Source: a virus
Virus record (IMG/VR): IMGVR_UViG_3300037141_000243
Span: 8,850-72,849 of that record
Strand: one strand, 5' to 3'
Length of the DNA stretch: 64,000 bases
The translations under genes were made by a program, and so were the position numbers. Shown one piece after another: positions 2,867 through 33,416 of the stretch; the stretch's first letter is position 1, and each line of letters opens with the position of its first letter. The notes below the pieces were generated by a model. It saw nothing but the letters and a program-made list of their open reading frames with translations, was not told the DNA's origin and made no database searches.

Positions 2867-3993
2867 CGTGAGCGGGTTACCACGTTTTTAGAGTGAATAT
2901 GTAAAAGAGTAAAGGCACGACCAAGCTGTCGATCATTATAAAGTGGACGACTTTCCTCTTCAACAGCATCCGCAGCAATCTCTTGGTTAAGAACACCAAC
3001 AGGATCGCCACCTTTATCCCAGACCCCGGCGCGAACGACCGCAATATGATCGTAAAGACTTGGCAAGCCCTCAATCAACAGTTTGCTACCATCTTCCAAT
3101 TCAACGGTATTGTTAACCGTGGGATCGCGGAAGACGACACAGGGTGATGTAGATAATTGTTCATCCCGCATCATGGTGGCGGCTTCGTCATCGTAAATGG
3201 CGATGATGCCCCAAACCTCCTGCTCGACCTCTTTCAGGTAAGGCAGCACGGTTGTCCCGATGATGCGGTCGGCAAATTCCTTGCTATTCAAAAAGCCCTT
3301 CTTAGGGTGCTCCATGATGACTGGCTTACCATTACAGCGGGCCAAGAATTCAGGGGTCATGTAAAGGGCGGGATCGCGCCAGACAAATTCCTTGTGCTTG
3401 TGGCGGTAGGCAACCCCGGTTCCTGTAATACGAATGGCAAAGAGCCACATGTTGTCGTAATGCTGCGGGCTTGTAAGTCGACCATCGGCAATGGCCTGGG
3501 CCACCCCGGTCTCGTTCATGGTAAGACGATCAATCGCAATCTGGCAGCCTGGATGTAAAGGCTGGGGCGGGTTATTCAGTGGTGCCCAGCACCAGCCTAC
3601 ATGTTCCCCGTCCAGCTTTACCATAAACTCATCATCGACCTGCTGTATAAACGTGGTGAAGTCCGTCTGTTCCTGGGGCGGGGTCGCAACGAGCGGGGCT
3701 GTGGTGGGTTGTGGCGGGCTTTCCAGGGCTGCTATGGGGGCAGGGGCCGGAATAGGGCTGGCAAGGGCCTGTGGGGCGCTAATGGAGCGGGTCCAAGGGG
3801 TCAAATCCCCCTTGGGGATAGAACCACATTCCTCTTTGGCTTCGCGGACAGCGCATTCCTCTAGGGTCTCATCGCCTTCCTGCTTGCCGCCGGGGAAGCA
3901 CCAGTAACCCGGCATGTCGCCTTTGTCAGAACGCTTTAATAGTAAGCAGTTGCCGTTGGGCGCGATGAAGAGGATTCCGGCGGCGGTAATCAT
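2863..3993 (-). CDS. NUDIX hydrolase fused to DUF2213 putative prohead protease
   Basis: Intact Nudix box GKQEGDETLEECAVREAKEECG, Pro-rich linker, then RITGTG, PVIMEHP, LSTSP and DHIAVVRAGVWDKGG typical of DUF2213. Confidence 0.85.
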   Translation of the reverse strand: MITAAGILFIAPNGNCLLLKRSDKGDMPGYWCFPGGKQEGDETLEECAVREAKEECGSIPKGDLTPWTRSISAPQALASPIPAPAPIAALESPPQPTTAPLVATPPQEQTDFTTFIQQVDDEFMVKLDGEHVGWCWAPLNNPPQPLHPGCQIAIDRLTMNETGVAQAIADGRLTSPQHYDNMWLFAIRITGTGVAYRHKHKEFVWRDPALYMTPEFLARCNGKPVIMEHPKKGFLNSKEFADRIIGTTVLPYLKEVEQEVWGIIAIYDDEAATMMRDEQLSTSPCVVFRDPTVNNTVELEDGSKLLIEGLPSLYDHIAVVRAGVWDKGGDPVGVLNQEIAADAVEEESRPLYNDRQLGRAFTLLHIHSKNVVTRSR

Positions 3994-25286: not shown

Positions 25287-26525
25287 TTATTTCCGCCTTA
25301 CCTTACGCGGCGGCTCGTCGTCCTCTTCAGCCTTGGGCTTCAAACGCTGGAGTCGGGCTCGGGTGCTGGCGACGGCGTCGTCGGAATCGGGATCGGCGTC
25401 TCGGCTTGCACGGGCTCGACCACGGGGCTTTTCTTCTTCGGGGTCCGGCTCCGGGTCGTCTTCCGGCTCGGGCTCTTCGGACCGGCTGCGGCGGCTACGC
25501 GGCGCTTCTTCTTCAGCCTCTTGGCGGCGTCCCCTGCGCGGGGTTTCGTCTTCGGCTTCTTCGCCGCGGCGCGAACGACGCGGGCTTTCTTCTTTGGTTT
25601 CTTCTTCGGCATTGTCATCCTCATTGTTACGCCCACGCGATCCCCTGGGCTTGGGTTCATCTTCAGGCTCCGGCTCTGAACGGTGATTTCTCGCAGAACG
25701 AGGCGTATTCGCTTCGGTGTCATCTTCGCCTTCCTCAGAAGACCGATTACGACTTGAACGAGTCGGCTTTTCTTCTTCCGCATCTTCTTCACGATCCTTC
25801 TTGGACCCCTTCTTGCCACGGTAAATCTTATCCAAGTAATCGTAATCGTGGATGATCAGCATGTCAGGCAACGGATTCTCAACAATGAAATCCATCCACT
25901 TATCCTGCGTCGATTGCTTTTCGTGCAGGGGCGAAGGGTCGCGGTCGATGTCCTCGTTGATGTAACGAGTATTTAGCATCTTGCCTTCACGGCGGAAGCT
26001 AATGTCGTGGCCGTTGTCAGGATCATCAATCGCCAGCACAGCCCCGGTTTTCTTGTTCTGCATACGAAGCTGCAAGGCTTTCTCAAGCTGCCAGCCAAGC
26101 CGCCAGACTTTGGGGCCTTCCTTTTCGGCGGAGCGGTCGATGATATAGGCCAAGCGTTCCTGCTTGGCTTTGAGGTCCTTGATGGCCTTTTCATCCTCGT
26201 CCTCGTCCATGCCGGCAACCGCCTCGCAGATTGGGCAAGCGGTATCCTGATCGAACAAAGCCCCCATCTTGGCCGGGCAAAGATAGACGCCGTTGTCAGG
26301 GCCGACATTACGGTGGACCCAGGTATCCAGGCACCAATTATTACCCCAATCGGATTTGAGATCCCAGGTCGGCGGCAGGATACGGTAATTGTTTTCGCCT
26401 TCCTCGACCTTCACAAACTGGACCAGATCATTAAGATAGCTATCGTAGGTGCTACCGGATTGCGTAGCCCGTTTCTTGACATCCTCCGGGCTGCGTTCTT
26501 GGTATTTGAATTTACTTGCTGCCAT
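25287..26525 (-). CDS. Single-stranded DNA-binding protein (T4 gp32-like) with long charged tail
   Basis: RILPP, H...CP...CPIC Zn site, DPDNGHDI; Glu/Arg-rich low-complexity C-terminus; AAGGAG RBS. Confidence 0.75.
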   Translation of the reverse strand: MAASKFKYQERSPEDVKKRATQSGSTYDSYLNDLVQFVKVEEGENNYRILPPTWDLKSDWGNNWCLDTWVHRNVGPDNGVYLCPAKMGALFDQDTACPICEAVAGMDEDEDEKAIKDLKAKQERLAYIIDRSAEKEGPKVWRLGWQLEKALQLRMQNKKTGAVLAIDDPDNGHDISFRREGKMLNTRYINEDIDRDPSPLHEKQSTQDKWMDFIVENPLPDMLIIHDYDYLDKIYRGKKGSKKDREEDAEEEKPTRSSRNRSSEEGEDDTEANTPRSARNHRSEPEPEDEPKPRGSRGRNNEDDNAEEETKEESPRRSRRGEEAEDETPRRGRRQEAEEEAPRSRRSRSEEPEPEDDPEPDPEEEKPRGRARASRDADPDSDDAVASTRARLQRLKPKAEEDDEPPRKVRRK

Positions 26526-27493: not shown

Positions 27494-29491
27494 CTACCCA
27501 CCCAGCACTAAAGTACCGCAGGCCAGCACGAGAGGGCTGATCCCATCGCCTTGCGCGAAAGGCTGCGCGAAGGCTTCCAGCACGGCGAACAGGCTACCTT
27601 TGGGCTCGCCCTTGGTGCCCATAATGACCGAAGTCACATAGCCGCGTACAACGTGGCGAATTGATTCCGGATTGACATCCTTTTCCTTCAGACCAACCAG
27701 GATATCCCTGATTTCACCCCAGGGCCGTCCCGCTACCAAGGCACGGGCCAAATCGACCGCCTCGGTGCTTTCCTCGGCGCTACGGAGCAGATCACGGGCT
27801 TCCTCGATGGTCTTGGCCCCGGCACACGCACCCAGCGCAACAAGGCCAGCACGCGGGCTGCCGTGCGCCTCCTTGGCGCAGAGCGATACGATTTGACGGC
27901 CCGCACCCGTCTGAAGGATTTTCTCGGCAACGGCTACGCTTTCTAACAGGTCGATGATCAGGTTGGTTGGTACATCTTTTAAGTTGTAAGCCGTGCAGCG
28001 GGTTTTGATATTGGTGGGGATTTTCCCCAGCTCGGTCGTGCAGAGGCACCACCACGTATCTGGCGGCGGCTCTTCCAATGATTTAAGCAGGGACGCCCAT
28101 GCCGGCGCTCCGAGGCGATGGCAATTATGCACCAATACATTATTTACAAAATATGACGGATGCTTTTCAATCTCTAAATCGTAGAACGTGACATAGCCAT
28201 CACACAACGCTTGATCTCGGTTACAACTTGCGGGCAAAATTTCAATACCTGCTCGTTGGTAACTCGTAACACTGTCCACCCTAAAGATTCCAGTTTCTTT
28301 TCCTTTTTGCGATCCTTCGCTTGATTTCGTTCCGAATTGTGCCCTTTCCCATCTACTTCTATTGCTAATTTTATATGCGGAAAAGCCAAATCCACTTTGT
28401 AATTTGTAGGGTATCCGGGTAACCTTTTCCCCAAAGAAACAGCAAACTCTACCGCACAGTTCAAACGCTTTAGTAACATAACCTGGGGCTTCGTTAGTTT
28501 TCCATTCCCACCCCGATTTTCCGGAAGAATTAAGTTCGTCCCATTTTTTATTCTGGTAGCTATAATTTTGTCGATTACATCCCGTCGTTTTGTGGGGTTG
28601 TTTTTCTGCATCCGTTTGGAAGACAAACGGTCCAGCTTTTTGTAATACTCCGGGGAACGAATACGAGATTCCAAAACCCCACGAGAAACAGCTTCTTTCC
28701 AATAATCTGGACGCGGCCCAGTTCTTTTTGATGCCCCCAACTCGTCTCCACAAACTTTCGAACAAGTCTGAATTCCCAAACCATTTGAACGCACATAAAA
28801 AGGCTCCCCACAAACCGGGCACTGCCTTCGCAGGCAAGTGGTGCAAGTTATTTTGTTTGGCGCTCTGGCTTGAAAACTTATCCCACATGAGGAGCAAGTT
28901 TTGGTCCAACGTCTTTTTGCTCTGTAATTCATCACCAATTTGTAGATCGCACGCGGCAACCCACCCCCTAGCTGTAAAAAACAAATGCTCTTTAGAGCAA
29001 CAAATAGAGGATGATCCTATGCTTATTTGCATAACCCTTGCAAGAGGAATCTTGGACCGAAAAACAGAACTAACCCGCGACAACCCAAGCCCGCACACAA
29101 TTTCTTGCCCCACACCAATCTGCTCAATTGGCAAAAACCCATTACCAACATCAATCAACGTTCCTGGAGCAAAACATTCATCTACAATAATCACGCGGGC
29201 CTGGCTGCGACCGTGCATTTTGTAGCCCAAGGTTTCGGTAATCCGCCTCATGTCATCGATGCTGGTAAAAGTCGCAGCGTCGATCTCCTGAATGGCGTGG
29301 TCCTTGGCCCCCACTTCGGTAGCAAGGATGCGGGCCAACGTGGTCTTGCCCGTACCCGATGGACCGGAGAACAAAAAGGTGTGGTTGCTCTTGGATTTGA
29401 GGACACGCCGCAAGGATGTAACCACGGCGTCCTGACCGATCACATCTTCAAAGGTCTTGGGACGGTATTTAAGGTAGAGGGATTCGGTCAT
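27494..29491 (-). CDS. DnaX (Pol III gamma/tau)-like clamp loader containing an intein
   Basis: LYLKYRPKTFEDVIGQ, Walker A GPSGTGKTT, Walker B IVDE|CH split by the intein, LLKSLEEPP, TRC; spliced product about 314 aa. Confidence 0.92.
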   Translation of the reverse strand: MTESLYLKYRPKTFEDVIGQDAVVTSLRRVLKSKSNHTFLFSGPSGTGKTTLARILATEVGAKDHAIQEIDAATFTSIDDMRRITETLGYKMHGRSQARVIIVDECFAPGTLIDVGNGFLPIEQIGVGQEIVCGLGLSRVSSVFRSKIPLARVMQISIGSSSICCSKEHLFFTARGWVAACDLQIGDELQSKKTLDQNLLLMWDKFSSQSAKQNNLHHLPAKAVPGLWGAFLCAFKWFGNSDLFESLWRRVGGIKKNWAASRLLERSCFSWGFGISYSFPGVLQKAGPFVFQTDAEKQPHKTTGCNRQNYSYQNKKWDELNSSGKSGWEWKTNEAPGYVTKAFELCGRVCCFFGEKVTRIPYKLQSGFGFSAYKISNRSRWERAQFGTKSSEGSQKGKETGIFRVDSVTSYQRAGIEILPASCNRDQALCDGYVTFYDLEIEKHPSYFVNNVLVHNCHRLGAPAWASLLKSLEEPPPDTWWCLCTTELGKIPTNIKTRCTAYNLKDVPTNLIIDLLESVAVAEKILQTGAGRQIVSLCAKEAHGSPRAGLVALGACAGAKTIEEARDLLRSAEESTEAVDLARALVAGRPWGEIRDILVGLKEKDVNPESIRHVVRGYVTSVIMGTKGEPKGSLFAVLEAFAQPFAQGDGISPLVLACGTLVLGG
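28124..29176 (-). mobile_element. Intein (351 aa) in the clamp loader Walker B motif
   Basis: Block A CFAPGTLI, block B CSKEHLFFT..GW....L..GD, blocks F/G FYDLEIEKHPSYFVNNVLVHN followed by Cys; removal restores IIVDECHRL. Confidence 0.95.
28174..28932 (-). CDS. Zn-finger + Vsr/DUF559-type endonuclease in the +1 frame inside the intein
   Basis: CSSC, CTTC, CPVC, CSKVC; YKVDLAF...LAIEVDGKGH...DRKKEKKLESLGWTVLRVTNEQV; start ATG 28932 or TTG 28959. Confidence 0.85.
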   Translation of the reverse strand: MNYRAKRRWTKTCSSCGISFQARAPNKITCTTCLRRQCPVCGEPFYVRSNGLGIQTCSKVCGDELGASKRTGPRPDYWKEAVSRGVLESRIRSPEYYKKLDRLSSKRMQKNNPTKRRDVIDKIIATRIKNGTNLILPENRGGNGKLTKPQVMLLKRLNCAVEFAVSLGKRLPGYPTNYKVDLAFPHIKLAIEVDGKGHNSERNQAKDRKKEKKLESLGWTVLRVTNEQVLKFCPQVVTEIKRCVMAMSRSTI

Positions 29492-29811
29492 GTATGCCTC
29501 AAGGTCCTGTATTCAATGGGACGCCCCGCAACTTTTGCAGCAGCTATTCCGTACTCCATACCCCGCGATATTCCACGATCCGTATAAACTACCGTAGCAG
29601 CGGCAACAGCGCCCCAAGCCAAACCGGCATCAATACCCCATTGGCGCTCTTCAATTACTTCATCGCGCAGGATACCTGGCTGGGTGTAAAGCAAATGAGA
29701 TGCGAACGGAGCTTCGCCCTTTAACAAGCAATCACACAGGGCCGACCGCGCATATTTTAGATTAGCCTCAACATCTCCGGCGTATGGGCTTTCCACAATC
29801 ACCAATCTCAT
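29488..29811 (-). CDS. Nucleoside deoxyribosyltransferase-like small protein
   Basis: VESPYAGD..N, GEAPFASHLLY and GISRGM motifs. Confidence 0.55.
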   Translation of the reverse strand: MRLVIVESPYAGDVEANLKYARSALCDCLLKGEAPFASHLLYTQPGILRDEVIEERQWGIDAGLAWGAVAAATVVYTDRGISRGMEYGIAAAKVAGRPIEYRTLRHT

Positions 29812-29812
29812 A

Positions 29813-30850
29813 TCAATTACCGCTTTCCTTTATTGCCGCGACAGCTTTATCAGCGGACCCTTTAAGAAATATGAGTACGTGCTGATGAGTTCGACCTAGC
29901 TTGCGCGTGGCGTTAAAAGGACGACCGGCCCGGATACTAAGGCTGCCCAACATCGTCAAACGGATTGCATCGTTGTAAAGATGCAGCCCGGCGCGTTGGA
30001 AAGCATTTATCGTCCCAGGAACAAACCCCACACAATTACCATCCTTGCCCCTGACTTCCCCAACTACAAAAATAGCAAAGCGGTTTAGTTTCAATCGAGT
30101 AACGACACTTTCTATGATGCCAGAATACTCGGGCTCAAACTTGTCCCATTTCAACGTGGAGATATCTTGTGGATCATTACTATATTGTTCGAGATCAACG
30201 TACGGAGGACAACTGTAAATACAGTCCAATGATTCAGGCTTTACAACCTTTGCTGAACTTCGCGCATCGCAAACCACGTATTTGGGAGTATTGGTTTTAC
30301 AAATCCTTTGAGCCTGTTCGTTGTTTGCCTCGACCTGCTCGGGTCGGATATCCGTTCCCAAGTATTTGTAACCCAACTTAGATGCCACAATACCGGCACA
30401 GCAACCACCCACAAACGGGTCAAAAACAAACCCACCCTTCGGCACAAACCATTTATACATCAGCTCGCAAAGCACGGGGTCAAACGACGACGTGCCTGTT
30501 TGGCCAGAAGTGTTTATCTTTCGGGATACCGGATCATCCCTAAGGGTAGCGCCTTCGGCGCTACCCTTAGCCTTCCCGTTCCCACCTCGCGCCTTATCGC
30601 GATTTTGCTGATCCACCTTTTCCTTGAAATAACGAGGGTCTTTGGCAGCGGCACTGAATCGTAAAAGATTCTCCGCCCGACCCAGCACCCGATCCATCCC
30701 CAAGGATAACCACGCAGCCTTCCGATCTTGCCATTCACCCTGCCGCGCATCCAGCACTGAAAACGGCGGTATCCCAAATTTATCGACGAGTCCACCCCCG
30801 TGGGTTTCAAACACGGCGTCCTTCTCGAAGAGACTTTTGTATTTTGCCAT
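29813..30850 (-). CDS. DNA amino-methyltransferase
   Basis: Motif I FDPFVGG and motif IV SCPPY; N-terminal PPFSVLDARQGEWQ.RK..W; probable start MAKYK at 30850. Confidence 0.85.
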   Translation of the reverse strand: MAKYKSLFEKDAVFETHGGGLVDKFGIPPFSVLDARQGEWQDRKAAWLSLGMDRVLGRAENLLRFSAAAKDPRYFKEKVDQQNRDKARGGNGKAKGSAEGATLRDDPVSRKINTSGQTGTSSFDPVLCELMYKWFVPKGGFVFDPFVGGCCAGIVASKLGYKYLGTDIRPEQVEANNEQAQRICKTNTPKYVVCDARSSAKVVKPESLDCIYSCPPYVDLEQYSNDPQDISTLKWDKFEPEYSGIIESVVTRLKLNRFAIFVVGEVRGKDGNCVGFVPGTINAFQRAGLHLYNDAIRLTMLGSLSIRAGRPFNATRKLGRTHQHVLIFLKGSADKAVAAIKESGN

Positions 30851-30851
30851 C

Positions 30852-33416
30852 TTATTTTTTCCACGTGTTAGATGCGTACTTACCAATCTCGTCCATATCA
30901 CAGAGATTAGGACCGATGGACATTTCCACCACCAGCGGCACATTCAGGAACGGGTAGGTCTTAGTCAGCAAGGTATCAATCTTTTCCTCGGCATAATCAT
31001 CAAAACCCTTAACTGGAAAGATACTGGTAAGATCATCATGGATATTACAAATGGGCTGGAAATACCAGTCTTCCTTTTCCGAAAGTGCGTTCATTCCGTC
31101 GATCACAATTTCACTCGCTAGATTTTGGATAGGGGCATTGATAAGCTGGTTCGGTGAGATTGGGGCGCGGCGTCGTATTCCCATTGCATTCTCAACATAC
31201 CCCTGCTCCTTGAAGTCAGCGATGATGCGTTCCTGCCATTCCTTGACCCCTGAAAAGGTCTTCCAAAATTCCTTGTAAAGCCTACCCAGAGATCCCTCAG
31301 GCAAACCCACTTGTCTTTCGGCGGTCGATTGCTGCGCGCCAAAGAACAGGGCGAAAACCCACCCACCCTTAACCGTCTGGCGAAAACCCTTCATGACGCC
31401 TTTGTCTTTTATGTATTTCTTACCCCCAACAACAACAGGAAATTCGTAAGCAATCTGCTCGGCCCAATCCATGTGCACGTCATAATCTTCCCAGAGCATT
31501 TTAGCGTAAACTTTGTCCTGTGACTCCATCGCTATACAACGACCCTCAATCTGCCCGTAATCCACGGAGCAAAGCAGATGGCCCTCAGGGGCGGCGATCT
31601 GACGACGGATTTCTTTTCCATCATCAGTTCTCTTGGGCAGATTTTGTGAATTTGGGTCCTCTGAACTCGACCGACCTGTAACCGTACTGAATCCATTCAA
31701 TATCGGATGCAGCTTTCCATCAGGGTAAACGTATTTGTGACCCTTGGGCCATACATAAGTTGACGCCAGCTTGGACGGCGCGCGCCAGTCCAACACCTTT
31801 TTGGCAATCGGGGCGTCGATCTTTTCCAGCACGGATTTGGTTACGGAATAGCTGGCCTCGCCGCCGTTGTAGCCTTCGCTCTTGCCAGCATCCGACCCCA
31901 CAATATCGCGGAACATCTTGACACAGTCGGTATCCGATCCGGGCTTAAAGTCCTTTTTGTATTTCTTACGGAAGGCTGCCACATCCGGATCGGTCGCGAT
32001 GGCCTTTGTCGCCTTGGCAATGGCCGTGCTCAATTTGTCATCGAGGCGGTCGGCCTGCTCAAAGTCGACCGGCATCCCCTTGATTTGTGTTAGGACAAGC
32101 GTAGGAATACGACGAATGCGGCGCTGGTATAGTTTAGTCAGTCCATCCAGCTCCAATTCCTCGGCCTGGTTCCAAAACAGCTCGAGACAGTATTTGGCGT
32201 CCACCGCGTTGTAGGGTAGGATCGCTTCCAGCGGTTCGCTTTCCATGTTTTTAGTATCGACATTAGACAGCGTCTTGATGTTAATACCAAAGCGGTTGAG
32301 TGTGATGAAACCCAACCCAAGGCAACTCGTATCCTTTGATGCCTGCTCTTGATCCGGCTTACCACCCACCCTTTCGTCCAGGGTATAGGCTTGGACCATC
32401 GAGTCACCCCATTGGGTACCGCGCAACAATTCCTTACCAAATTTGACCGCCGTCCATTCCATCTCGAATGCCAAATTGTGGGCTATCTTGCGGACAGGGG
32501 CTTTCAGGTACGCGAGGAAAGCCTGCCGGATCATTTCCTTGGCCGGCTTACTCCATTTGGCTTCTGGGTGGTCGTAGGGGAAGGCAATCGCCTTACCTTT
32601 GATTGCAATCCCAATGGACAGGATTTTGGTTTCGGGGCGGTAAGGGCGCAAATGACTGGTTTCATAGTCAAGCCCGGATTCAGGCTCGCTGGCGGCCTTT
32701 TCCAGAAAGCGGACAATGTCCCCTGCCGCCCGTGGATCGCACCAGTCGACGCTTGTGAGGCCCGTGAACGCCTTTTCCCGGCTATGGAAAGGGGGCGGGG
32801 GCAGATCGTTGATCTCAGCAAAGGCCCGGCGCAGGTCAAGGCGGAAAACATGCTCCTCCTTGGATTCCCCGCTGCGGCGGGCTGAGCGGGCCACAAAGGT
32901 GGGGTCCAGCATGGGGAAATACCAGCAGACGTGGTTACCTATCTTGACGGGTATTTTCCTGCCACGCCATTTGACAATACCATTCTGTTGGAGCGCCCAA
33001 TGTAGGGGCACATTCCCCATACCGAAGATCGCTAGGGGCTGAGCAACAATGATGTCTTTTTCAACACGCGGTCTGCAACACTCTCTCTCGATAGGTTCAG
33101 GATCACGTCCGGCTGGCGTTCTACAATTGATGACATTGTTAAAGCGTATTCGGTCGCGCCACTTCTTAGGAATCTGTTTGAGCAAAAGCTGGCCCGATGT
33201 GCCGGCAAAATGCTCGCCCTGTTTATCATCCTCGGCGGTAGGGGCTTCCCCCAATATGTAGATGTCAGGCTGCTTATCGCCCGACGCTTTCATCTTGGGG
33301 TGGTCAAGGTCGGCTGTATTCAGCGGGCATCCACGGCAACCCAACCTGCGATACAAATCAACAGACCCAGAATCACCGCTGGCTTTTGCTAACGTCTGTG
33401 CCCCAAAAAACCCCAA
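30852..33416 (-). CDS. Family A DNA polymerase with N-terminal uracil-DNA-glycosylase-like domain and 3'-5' exonuclease
   Basis: UDG-like C..CPL, LGEAP, F.G.SG, NVINC; exonuclease LDYET, HNLAFE, YNAVDA; TGRSSS.DPN.QN, motif A DYGQIEGR, motif C IHDDL; TTG start. Confidence 0.93.
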   Translation of the reverse strand: MGFFGAQTLAKASGDSGSVDLYRRLGCRGCPLNTADLDHPKMKASGDKQPDIYILGEAPTAEDDKQGEHFAGTSGQLLLKQIPKKWRDRIRFNNVINCRTPAGRDPEPIERECCRPRVEKDIIVAQPLAIFGMGNVPLHWALQQNGIVKWRGRKIPVKIGNHVCWYFPMLDPTFVARSARRSGESKEEHVFRLDLRRAFAEINDLPPPPFHSREKAFTGLTSVDWCDPRAAGDIVRFLEKAASEPESGLDYETSHLRPYRPETKILSIGIAIKGKAIAFPYDHPEAKWSKPAKEMIRQAFLAYLKAPVRKIAHNLAFEMEWTAVKFGKELLRGTQWGDSMVQAYTLDERVGGKPDQEQASKDTSCLGLGFITLNRFGINIKTLSNVDTKNMESEPLEAILPYNAVDAKYCLELFWNQAEELELDGLTKLYQRRIRRIPTLVLTQIKGMPVDFEQADRLDDKLSTAIAKATKAIATDPDVAAFRKKYKKDFKPGSDTDCVKMFRDIVGSDAGKSEGYNGGEASYSVTKSVLEKIDAPIAKKVLDWRAPSKLASTYVWPKGHKYVYPDGKLHPILNGFSTVTGRSSSEDPNSQNLPKRTDDGKEIRRQIAAPEGHLLCSVDYGQIEGRCIAMESQDKVYAKMLWEDYDVHMDWAEQIAYEFPVVVGGKKYIKDKGVMKGFRQTVKGGWVFALFFGAQQSTAERQVGLPEGSLGRLYKEFWKTFSGVKEWQERIIADFKEQGYVENAMGIRRRAPISPNQLINAPIQNLASEIVIDGMNALSEKEDWYFQPICNIHDDLTSIFPVKGFDDYAEEKIDTLLTKTYPFLNVPLVVEMSIGPNLCDMDEIGKYASNTWKK

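Follow-up and report, generated by a model that had tools for sequence, protein, structure and literature searches.

The DNA under study (hereafter the window) is a stretch of 64,000 nucleotides from an IMG/VR virus record (IMGVR_UViG_3300037141_000243; 72,849 bases, estimated completeness 98%). Its minus strand carries a gene for a clamp loader of the DnaX/gp44-like AAA+ type, which is interrupted by an intein, and the DNA of the intein is open in two frames: that of the clamp loader (frame 0), which specifies a splicing domain, and the overlapping +1 frame, which contains an open reading frame (ORF) for a predicted Vsr-like nuclease (Table 1). The 665-residue product of the host frame is matched by the Pfam models DNA_pol3_delta2 (E 3.4e-13), AAA and RuvB_N, and shares 44% and 43% identity, respectively, with the annotated clamp loaders of Pseudanabaena phage Pan1 and Edwardsiella phage vB_EpM_ZHS, which we obtained by tblastn against cultured phages. 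Both homologs lack the intein and read continuously through IIDE-CHRLS; the single long gap in their alignment with the window protein corresponds to the 351 intein residues and falls between IIVDE and CHRL. This gap coincides exactly with positions 28124-29176, and removal of the intein restores the uninterrupted, conserved Walker-B motif of the host, as judged from the same alignment. The intein also stands out in its composition, with a G+C content of 42-48% against 54-61% in the flanking exteins. A scan of viral contigs with the C-extein as query gave 46 pattern matches, none of which was confirmed. A group I or group II intron at the locus was considered and rejected, as an Rfam scan (E ≤1) returned only a chance match to TarB (E 0.16).

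The first-pass annotation, made from the letters of the DNA alone, had proposed a 351-residue intein bearing the motifs CFAPGT, SKEH and VHN followed by CH, a middle region devoid of any recognizable domain and, in the +1 frame, a protein with four Cys pairs and a Vsr/DUF559-type nuclease domain. Every one of these elements was borne out when profile and structure searches were run on both frames: they returned only the lobes of a Hint domain in frame 0 and a DUF559/Vsr-like fold in frame +1. Frame 0 has the N-terminal nucleophile and the (T/S)xxH signature of block B, with C1, F2, H64 and T68 invariant in 19 aligned inteins, and ends in VLVHN before the +1 Cys, with N351 invariant and H350 nearly so in the same alignment. 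An AlphaFold2 model built on these 19 sequences places residues 1-90 at a predicted local distance difference test score (pLDDT) above 90 and most of residues 111-295 below 50, with block means of 63-95 over residues 298-351, where the C-lobe strands comprise residues 298-305, 328-336, 341-344 and 347-350. Foldseek matches this model best to the gp41-1 intein (6qaz; E 3.2e-7, with 29% identity over 89 columns), and the Foldseek probability is 1.00 for the gp41-1, DnaB and RecA inteins alike. A search of PDB chains with the frame-0 sequence found nothing at E ≤0.01, so the link to gp41-1 derives from the fold search. The Pfam matches within frame 0 of the intein are confined to its two ends and to the Hint and intein-splicing models (Intein_splicing at 28.1 bits, below its cut-off of 35.8), and a search for PHROG matches to the frame-0 intein was empty. 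As modeled, frame 0 is a class-1-type Hint domain split by a stretch of about 200 residues that has no predicted fold.

The +1 ORF opens inside the codons GGT GAT GAA of the intein and reaches its TAG stop inside GAT TTA GAG, both of which had been read off the sequence in the first pass. Its four Cys pairs (C22/25, C40/43, C47/50 and C66/70) lie in the N-terminal part of the protein, which consists of two zinc-ribbon-like Cys4 modules and a helical linker: the structural model has beta hairpins at residues 18-31 and 43-56, this region gives weak profile matches to the L24e and YacG zinc ribbons, and C47, C50, C66 and C70 are invariant or nearly so across the family alignment. The C-terminal part is recognized by the Pfam model DUF559 (E 4e-12; 46.4 bits against a cut-off of 20.6). 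The AlphaFold2 model of the whole protein, based on an alignment of 23 relatives, has a mean pLDDT of 86.7, and its highest-ranking Foldseek matches are, in this order, the catalytic domain of the homing endonuclease I-Bth0305I (3r3p; template modeling score 0.74 on the target), a DUF559 protein (3hrl) and the Escherichia coli Vsr endonuclease (1vsr). Matches of a profile built from 23 nucleases have E values of 7e-14 for 3hrl and 0.006 for 3r3p, the latter being a weak sequence link. D190, E201, D203, H207 and D216 are invariant in these 23 sequences and align with identical residues of 3hrl. The window copy has all 21 residues that are invariant in the family, as follows from its inclusion in the alignment that was scored. 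Going by the model and the profiles, frame +1 encodes a confidently folded nuclease of the Vsr-like/EDxHD type with the full set of family-invariant residues.

Searches by tblastn with the nuclease recovered relatives on 29 viral contigs, 51 metagenome contigs and 42 cultured-phage records (three of these records were examined). Of the first 32 loci, 27 have the nuclease ORF completely enclosed in a second ORF of 672-1123 residues, two to four times longer, and the relative frame is identical throughout; two more of these loci are interrupted by contig ends yet are free of stops. A second set comprised 35 metagenome loci, after removal of 16 whose nuclease DNA is identical to one already counted, and 34 of the 35 are without a stop in the host frame. 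Over all 64 non-redundant nuclease ORFs, the window included, the host frame has no stop in 60, one in locus L007, 14 in L026, 14 in L029 and 10 in L055; in other words, the arrangement recurs in 60 of 64 non-redundant relatives. Three of the embedded copies come from cultured phages, namely Vibrio phage CP-T1 (L030), Pseudomonas phage MR14 (L031) and Corynebacterium phage phi673 (L032), each with a helicase coding sequence that harbors such an intein, in which the +1 nuclease ORF has 215-250 codons. The GenBank records of all three give only the helicase coding sequence, in keeping with the first-pass expectation that standard annotation would overlook the nuclease.

The open state of frame 0 exceeds what chance would allow. 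When synonymous codons were permuted within the +1 ORF of the window in 2000 trials, the host frame acquired a mean of 19.1 stops and was stop-free in 0/2000 trials, against an observed count of zero; the third frame, used as internal control, contains 22 stops where 20.7 are expected. The same procedure on 29 ORFs gave means of 4.8-21.6 host-frame stops for each, with P(0) ≤0.0015 in every case and the third frame as expected. With the nuclease in +1, a host-frame stop requires a nuclease codon ending in T followed by one starting with AA, AG or GA. In the embedded copies, codons ending in T stand before such codons in 0/4492 cases, as opposed to 27.7% of 10495 cases elsewhere (0/73 against 83/206 in the window), whereas in the three free-standing copies described below they make up 17% of 223. 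Nucleotide identity in the codon alignment is 0.49, 0.53 and 0.36 at nuclease codon positions 1, 2 and 3, which makes the nuclease wobble position (position 1 of the host codon) the most variable. For amino acids, the nuclease frame has an identity of 0.353 and the host frame one of 0.194, with the nuclease frame ahead in 276/276 pairs; the codon alignment was guided by the nuclease frame and is biased toward it, so this comparison is supporting evidence and not proof. Thus, conservation among homologs follows the +1 frame, as the first pass had anticipated: the nuclease frame is under purifying selection, and selection on its synonymous sites keeps the host frame open.

The geometry of the overlap adds a qualification. 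The nuclease ORF spans intein residues 73-334; its first ~20 codons overlap confidently modeled strands of the N-lobe, and its last 37 overlap the C-lobe up to the YDLE of block F, such that the frame-0 strand FRVDSVTS (residues 298-305) and the nuclease motif LGWTVLRV are the same DNA. Hence, frame 0 does not merely avoid stops, as had further been proposed: some 20 codons of the nuclease ORF at its 5′ end and some 37 at its 3′ end also encode confidently modeled Hint strands and may be constrained in both frames. The frame-0 linker itself is a by-product of the +1 gene. With this amendment, the element is dual-coding as had been proposed, with Hint lobes in frame 0, a nuclease with a predicted fold in frame +1 and a host frame held free of stops by selection.

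Table 1. Features of the intein-containing clamp-loader locus and its neighbors (positions in the window).
Feature	Position	Strand	Remarks
Clamp-loader (DnaX/gp44-like AAA+) gene with intein	27494..29491	-	665 aa plus stop; Pfam and homologs
N-extein	29177..29491	-	105 aa; Walker-B ...IIVDE at its end
C-extein	27494..28123	-	209 aa plus stop; first residues CHRL
Intein, frame 0	28124..29176	-	351 aa; C1, SKEH (block B), YDLEIEKHPSYFVNNVLVHN (blocks F/G), then +1 Cys
Hint N-lobe (intein residues 1-95)	28892..29176	-	AlphaFold2 pLDDT 90-96 in blocks 1-90
Frame-0 linker (intein residues 96-297)	28286..28891	-	no predicted fold; low pLDDT, no Pfam/PHROG match
Hint C-lobe (intein residues 298-351)	28124..28285	-	first 37 codons overlap nuclease C-terminus
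Putative homing-endonuclease gene, frame +1	28174..28959	-	261 aa from TTG 28959; 252 aa from ATG 28932; stop TAG 28174-28176
Two zinc-ribbon-like modules (nuclease residues 22-70)	28750..28896	-	four Cys pairs; presumed DNA binding
Vsr-like/EDxHD catalytic domain (nuclease residues ~150-261)	28177..28512	-	profile, Foldseek, invariant residues
AGGGGGTGGG, G-rich Shine-Dalgarno-like run	28960..28969	-	directly before TTG 28959; frame-0 codons R-G-W; candidate
DUF7768 protein	29488-29811	-	
N6/N4 DNA methylase	29813-30943	-	
Family-A DNA polymerase	30852-33416	-	N-terminal UDG-superfamily domain

The insertion site is as constant as the frame. At 27 of 27 first-set loci with resolved boundaries, the window included, the intein begins with CF straight after the DE of Walker-B and ends in (H/S)N before a Cys or Ser; L002 falls outside this pattern, with an insertion apparently two residues further on (DEAH/C). 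The nuclease stop of the relatives lies 8, 11, 20, 44, 50, 65 or 68 nt upstream of the intein end, and the nuclease tail hence crosses blocks F and G in many of them. Assignment of hosts by clustering of the C-exteins combined with Pfam yielded 24 clamp loaders, 30 superfamily 2 (SF2) helicases (SNF2, DEAD/ResIII and a helicase-methylase fusion), a terminase large subunit (L016 and L017), a superfamily 1 (SF1) helicase of the UvrD/AAA_30 type (L056) and a few unassigned proteins. The composite elements make up one family, and its hosts, namely clamp loaders, SF2 and SF1 helicases and a terminase, are all entered at the Walker-B DE. The host types form clusters on a quick maximum-likelihood tree of the nucleases (60 rows), with 12 label changes against 25.9 in shuffles, of which 0/200 were as low, and with a few switches; the window falls on a long branch within the clamp-loader group (22 of 23 clamp-loader rows; Shimodaira-Hasegawa-like approximate likelihood-ratio support 92). 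As the supports are modest and the window branch is long, the tree was used only for the clustering of hosts and the placement of L026. Among the helicase hosts, a 1331-residue SNF2-type ORF (L049:532-4524) matches two Pfam models of interest: Intein_splicing over residues 575-877, the region with the +1 Vsr-like gene inside it, and, ~160 residues upstream and in frame, LAGLIDADG_3 over residues 354-414. The LAGLIDADG_3 region may represent a second, canonical intein.

The four loci with host-frame stops furnish natural controls. In L026 (2560-3820), an intact nuclease ORF of 280 codons is accompanied by an intein frame with 14 stops, and no host gene surrounds it. This is an intein relic, in which the N-lobe and the terminal HN have been lost and the host frame is still intein-like (FFGVESFEVLEQGH...TLYFFNFEIKRHTNYTIN as compared with FFRVESFEVLEQGH...TLYFYDLEIKQHPSFTINGGLVHN in L022); on the tree it is the sister of L022, which is embedded. 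The combination of an intact nuclease with 14 stops indicates that the nuclease gene outlives the intein and that stops build up once the host frame becomes irrelevant. L029 and L055 are likewise free-standing copies, adjoining other genes. In the clamp-loader intein of L007 (2220-4361), the nuclease DNA of which is the same as that of L041, a single host-frame stop at 3180-3182 lies in the linker and the rest is intact, including ...VAVHN/CHRL; this stop could be a sequencing error, or mark a pseudogene or an incipient fractured gene.

The idea that an intein might have its endonuclease out of frame was reportedly first put forward by Gorbalenya in 1998, according to Gosselin and colleagues. 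The general layout has since been published for other combinations of nuclease and frame, which corrects any notion that the layout as such is new. Gosselin, Arsenault and Gogarten reported actinophage inteins with antisense LAGLIDADG genes, antisense VSR-like genes and same-strand frame-3 endonuclease VII-like genes, and proposed that they arose when a free-standing endonuclease gene invaded an intein (bioRxiv 10.1101/2025.01.02.630785). Those inteins, like that of the window, are contiguous and presumably splice, with the endonuclease as a separate overlapping ORF, and their VSR-like nuclease of ~267 residues matches 3R3P (EDxHD), as does ours. However, the VSR-like gene is antisense there, whereas it is in the +1 frame of the sense strand here, and the only same-strand case described in that preprint is the frame-3 endonuclease VII-like one. 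The hosts of the non-canonical cases also differ, being actinophage DNA polymerase, minor capsid protein, terminase and thymidylate synthase in that study, as against clamp loaders and helicases of environmental phages, entered at the Walker-B DE, in the present one. Phillips, DeSimone and Gogarten described a cyanobacterial dnaX intein with a LAGLIDADG-like gene in a "+2 ORF" under frame-dependent selection (bioRxiv 10.64898/2026.09.14.751524). It shares with the window the clamp-loader host, the disordered in-frame middle and the frame-dependent selection, and with our family a well-folded overlapping ORF and Shine-Dalgarno-like motifs, but it involves a LAGLIDADG-like nuclease in a "+2 ORF" of cellular genomes, as opposed to an EDxHD/Vsr-like nuclease in +1 of a phage.

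The fractured genes of Dassa et al. 2009 (PMC2677866) have free-standing members of the Vsr-like family between the halves of split inteins, with hairpins upstream of the endonuclease genes. They resemble the window in the nuclease family, in their phage DNA-replication hosts and in the overlap of the nuclease 3′ end with the coding region of the C-terminal intein, and gp41-1, structurally the closest to the Hint domain of the window, is among the split inteins of that study. There, however, the host is in two ORFs and spliced in trans, whereas here the host frame runs unbroken through the nuclease gene; a fractured gene with a split intein was rejected for the window on this ground, the host frame being continuous in it and in 60 of 64 relatives. 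I-Bth0305I, the prototype EDxHD homing endonuclease characterized by Taylor et al. 2011 (PMC3239194), resembles the window nuclease in its Vsr-like catalytic domain, with the conserved residues E, D, H and D, and in its length of ~260 residues; it has N-terminal DNA-binding modules, a role only presumed for the zinc-ribbon-like modules of the window protein, but is encoded in a group I intron of phage recA and is not overprinted on a protein-coding frame. Finally, an out-of-frame HNH gene in an insert of a phage methylase (ShiLan-type; Arsenault et al. 2025, PMC11855218) parallels the window as an endonuclease gene hidden in another frame of an insert without host-frame stops, but there the nuclease is of the HNH type, a splicing domain is absent and the insert is retained in the host protein. 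In full-text searches of the literature we found no description of a sense-strand +1 EDxHD/DUF559 gene in a contiguous Walker-B intein, although the supplementary tables of 10.1101/2025.01.02.630785 may list cases.

We consider it very probable that the window contains a mobile intein, with its homing endonuclease encoded by a separate gene that overprints it in the +1 frame. Translation in the clamp-loader frame would yield a precursor in which the Hint lobes (residues 1-95 and 298-351) are joined by an unstructured tether of ~200 residues, which is the frame-0 reading of the nuclease gene. The Hint domain would then splice itself out by means of Cys1, the (S/T)xxH block, the terminal His-Asn and the +1 Cys, restoring IIVDE-CHRL. 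A separate ribosome start inside the intein, at TTG 28959 or ATG 28932, would produce a nuclease of 252-261 residues, predicted to combine two zinc ribbons, a helical linker and an EDxHD/Vsr-like nuclease domain. In a mixed infection, by analogy with I-Bth0305I, this nuclease would cut an intein-less allele near the DE/CH codons, and repair would copy in the element.

As to how the nuclease is made, the pattern across the family favors internal initiation. Of 27 non-redundant loci, 20 have a start codon 0-6 codons past the stop that precedes the open nuclease frame, and in L011 the two are directly adjacent, which leaves little room for a frameshift site; moreover, many relatives have AGGAG-, AAGGAG- or GAGGT-like motifs 6-9 nt upstream of the start, these Shine-Dalgarno counts being descriptive and without a shuffle control. 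A scan for sigma-70-like promoters gave 0 sites against 2.1 expected, which is uninformative; with none found, the nuclease would probably be translated from the clamp-loader mRNA. Terminator-like sites, at 4 against 3.3 expected, are equally uninformative. One such hairpin, at 28986-28999 on the minus strand (TGCTCTAAAGAGCA followed by a T run), lies in the block-B codons about 27 nt upstream of the TTG, and may be a chance occurrence.

Several points weigh against this interpretation, beginning with the want of a promoter-like site, the descriptive nature of the Shine-Dalgarno counts and the alignment bias noted above. Expression, splicing and cleavage, whether by this copy or by any other member of the family, are predictions, and among the runs holding the stretch none is listed as an RNA run. 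The initiation signals of the window are themselves poor: the G-rich motif before TTG 28959 has one mismatch, stands 3-4 nt off and is left unscored by the exact-match scan, whereas ATG 28932 aligns with the Met of several relatives and has no Shine-Dalgarno match. The viral-contig and metagenome-contig scans yielded no relative of the window nuclease closer than ~41% identity over the greater part of its length, on account of which the family-wide codon-position statistics took the place of a lineage-specific ratio of nonsynonymous to synonymous substitution. The stretch is present in peat-metagenome runs, and the contigs of four runs (three studies) cover most of it; no extein joint without the intein was seen in these contigs, which cannot show its absence. 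Finally, one contig of run X3 (depth ~6) has a C to A change (plus strand) at 28218, which turns nuclease codon 248 from GAG to TAG, with loss of the last 14 residues, and changes a host Arg to Leu; this premature stop suggests that selection on the nuclease of this lineage may be relaxing.

One alternative is that the +1 gene is a silent or decaying passenger in this phage, the intein now being inherited vertically and the nuclease unmade or unable to cut. The weak start signals, the lack of a promoter-like site and the premature stop in X3 would fit such a state, as would the terminal branch of the window nuclease, which at 1.75 is the fourth longest of 60 tree rows (median 0.93). We nevertheless regard decay as unlikely, given that the window ORF is full length, retains every family-invariant residue (by the scoring described above) and is predicted to fold with the confidence already given, and that the other three runs have the reference base at 28218. 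The X3 contig has only this 1 difference in ~970 nt of the intein; the other 23 of its 24 differences fall within the C-extein (27692-27881), where 16 affect third codon positions and the set as a whole changes 3 amino acids. This 190-nt patch is divergent in runs X3, X6 and X7 alike (23 differences; 21 in X7, where the last two are uncovered). It looks like a recombination mosaic; a co-conversion tract left by homing was rejected, for the sequence is identical on both flanks.

A programmed +1 ribosomal frameshift, by which the nuclease would be made as a fusion to the N-extein and the Hint N-lobe, would circumvent the poor initiation signals of the window, where 19 codons without a stop precede TTG 28959 in the +1 frame. 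We judge it improbable, in view of the starts that follow the nuclease-frame stop within 0-6 codons, or directly in L011, with little or no room for a shift site, and of the Shine-Dalgarno-like motifs at normal spacing in most relatives. Slightly less probable still is a functional folded domain in the middle of frame 0, with both frames structured throughout. Some frame-0 residues there are conserved (L259, Q260 and R273), and short helices are predicted; however, these conserved residues lie exactly under the most conserved +1 motifs, the conserved LQS of frame 0 being under GYPTNYKVD, and the low pLDDT across most of residues 111-295, the empty Pfam and PHROG searches and a frame-0 identity about half that of frame +1 all speak against such a domain. 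That the endonuclease is truly in frame and was displaced by two compensating assembly errors, an artefact suggested by nothing beyond the a priori oddity of the layout, is next to inconceivable in the face of an identical relative frame at 60 of 64 independent loci (three of them in finished phage genomes from GenBank), a T-ending codon pattern (0/4492) that sequencing error cannot produce and contigs of four other runs with 0 insertions or deletions in the region.

The host gene belongs to a minus-strand replication block that also holds the DUF7768 protein, the DNA methylase and the family-A DNA polymerase. The latter has, at residues 46-184, a domain of the uracil-DNA glycosylase (UDG) superfamily (E 2.2e-13), ahead of its 3′-5′ exonuclease and polymerase domains. 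Beside the replication genes lies an ORF of 412 residues (25287-26525, minus strand) that has no Pfam match; its C-terminal half is long, highly charged and rich in Arg, Glu, Asp and Pro.

The overprinted intein belongs to a widespread family, mostly missed by annotation, in which one stretch of DNA serves an intein and its predicted homing endonuclease in two frames; gene callers give one long helicase or clamp-loader ORF and overlook a complete nuclease gene. More tentatively, the overprinting could be a design that enables persistence and not a tolerated accident, with the composite moving between genes for Walker-B NTPases and being the parent of both the fractured and the free-standing forms, a proposal that we hold to be doubtful at present. 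Under it, the position of the nuclease gene would protect it against the most frequent route of decay, since frameshifting indels would also destroy an essential clamp loader or helicase. If it is true, the family would be the contiguous parent of Dassa-type fractured genes, which are one stop away, as in L007, and also of free-standing Vsr-like endonuclease genes, as in L026, an intein relic. The natural series, comprising 60 contiguous overprinted loci, L007 with its one stop, the L026 relic with a live nuclease and the free-standing L029 and L055, offers material to test both the "splicing first, endonuclease invades later" scenario and the origin of fractured genes. The family could also supply tools, in the form of short Hint domains that presumably tolerate an unstructured insert of 200 residues, paired with a long-site EDxHD nuclease family of which only one member is characterized in the literature consulted. 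As host-frame stops need a T-ending codon followed by AA, AG or GA, synonymous choice alone suffices to keep an essential gene open, and the family illustrates at how low a cost two genes can share the same DNA.

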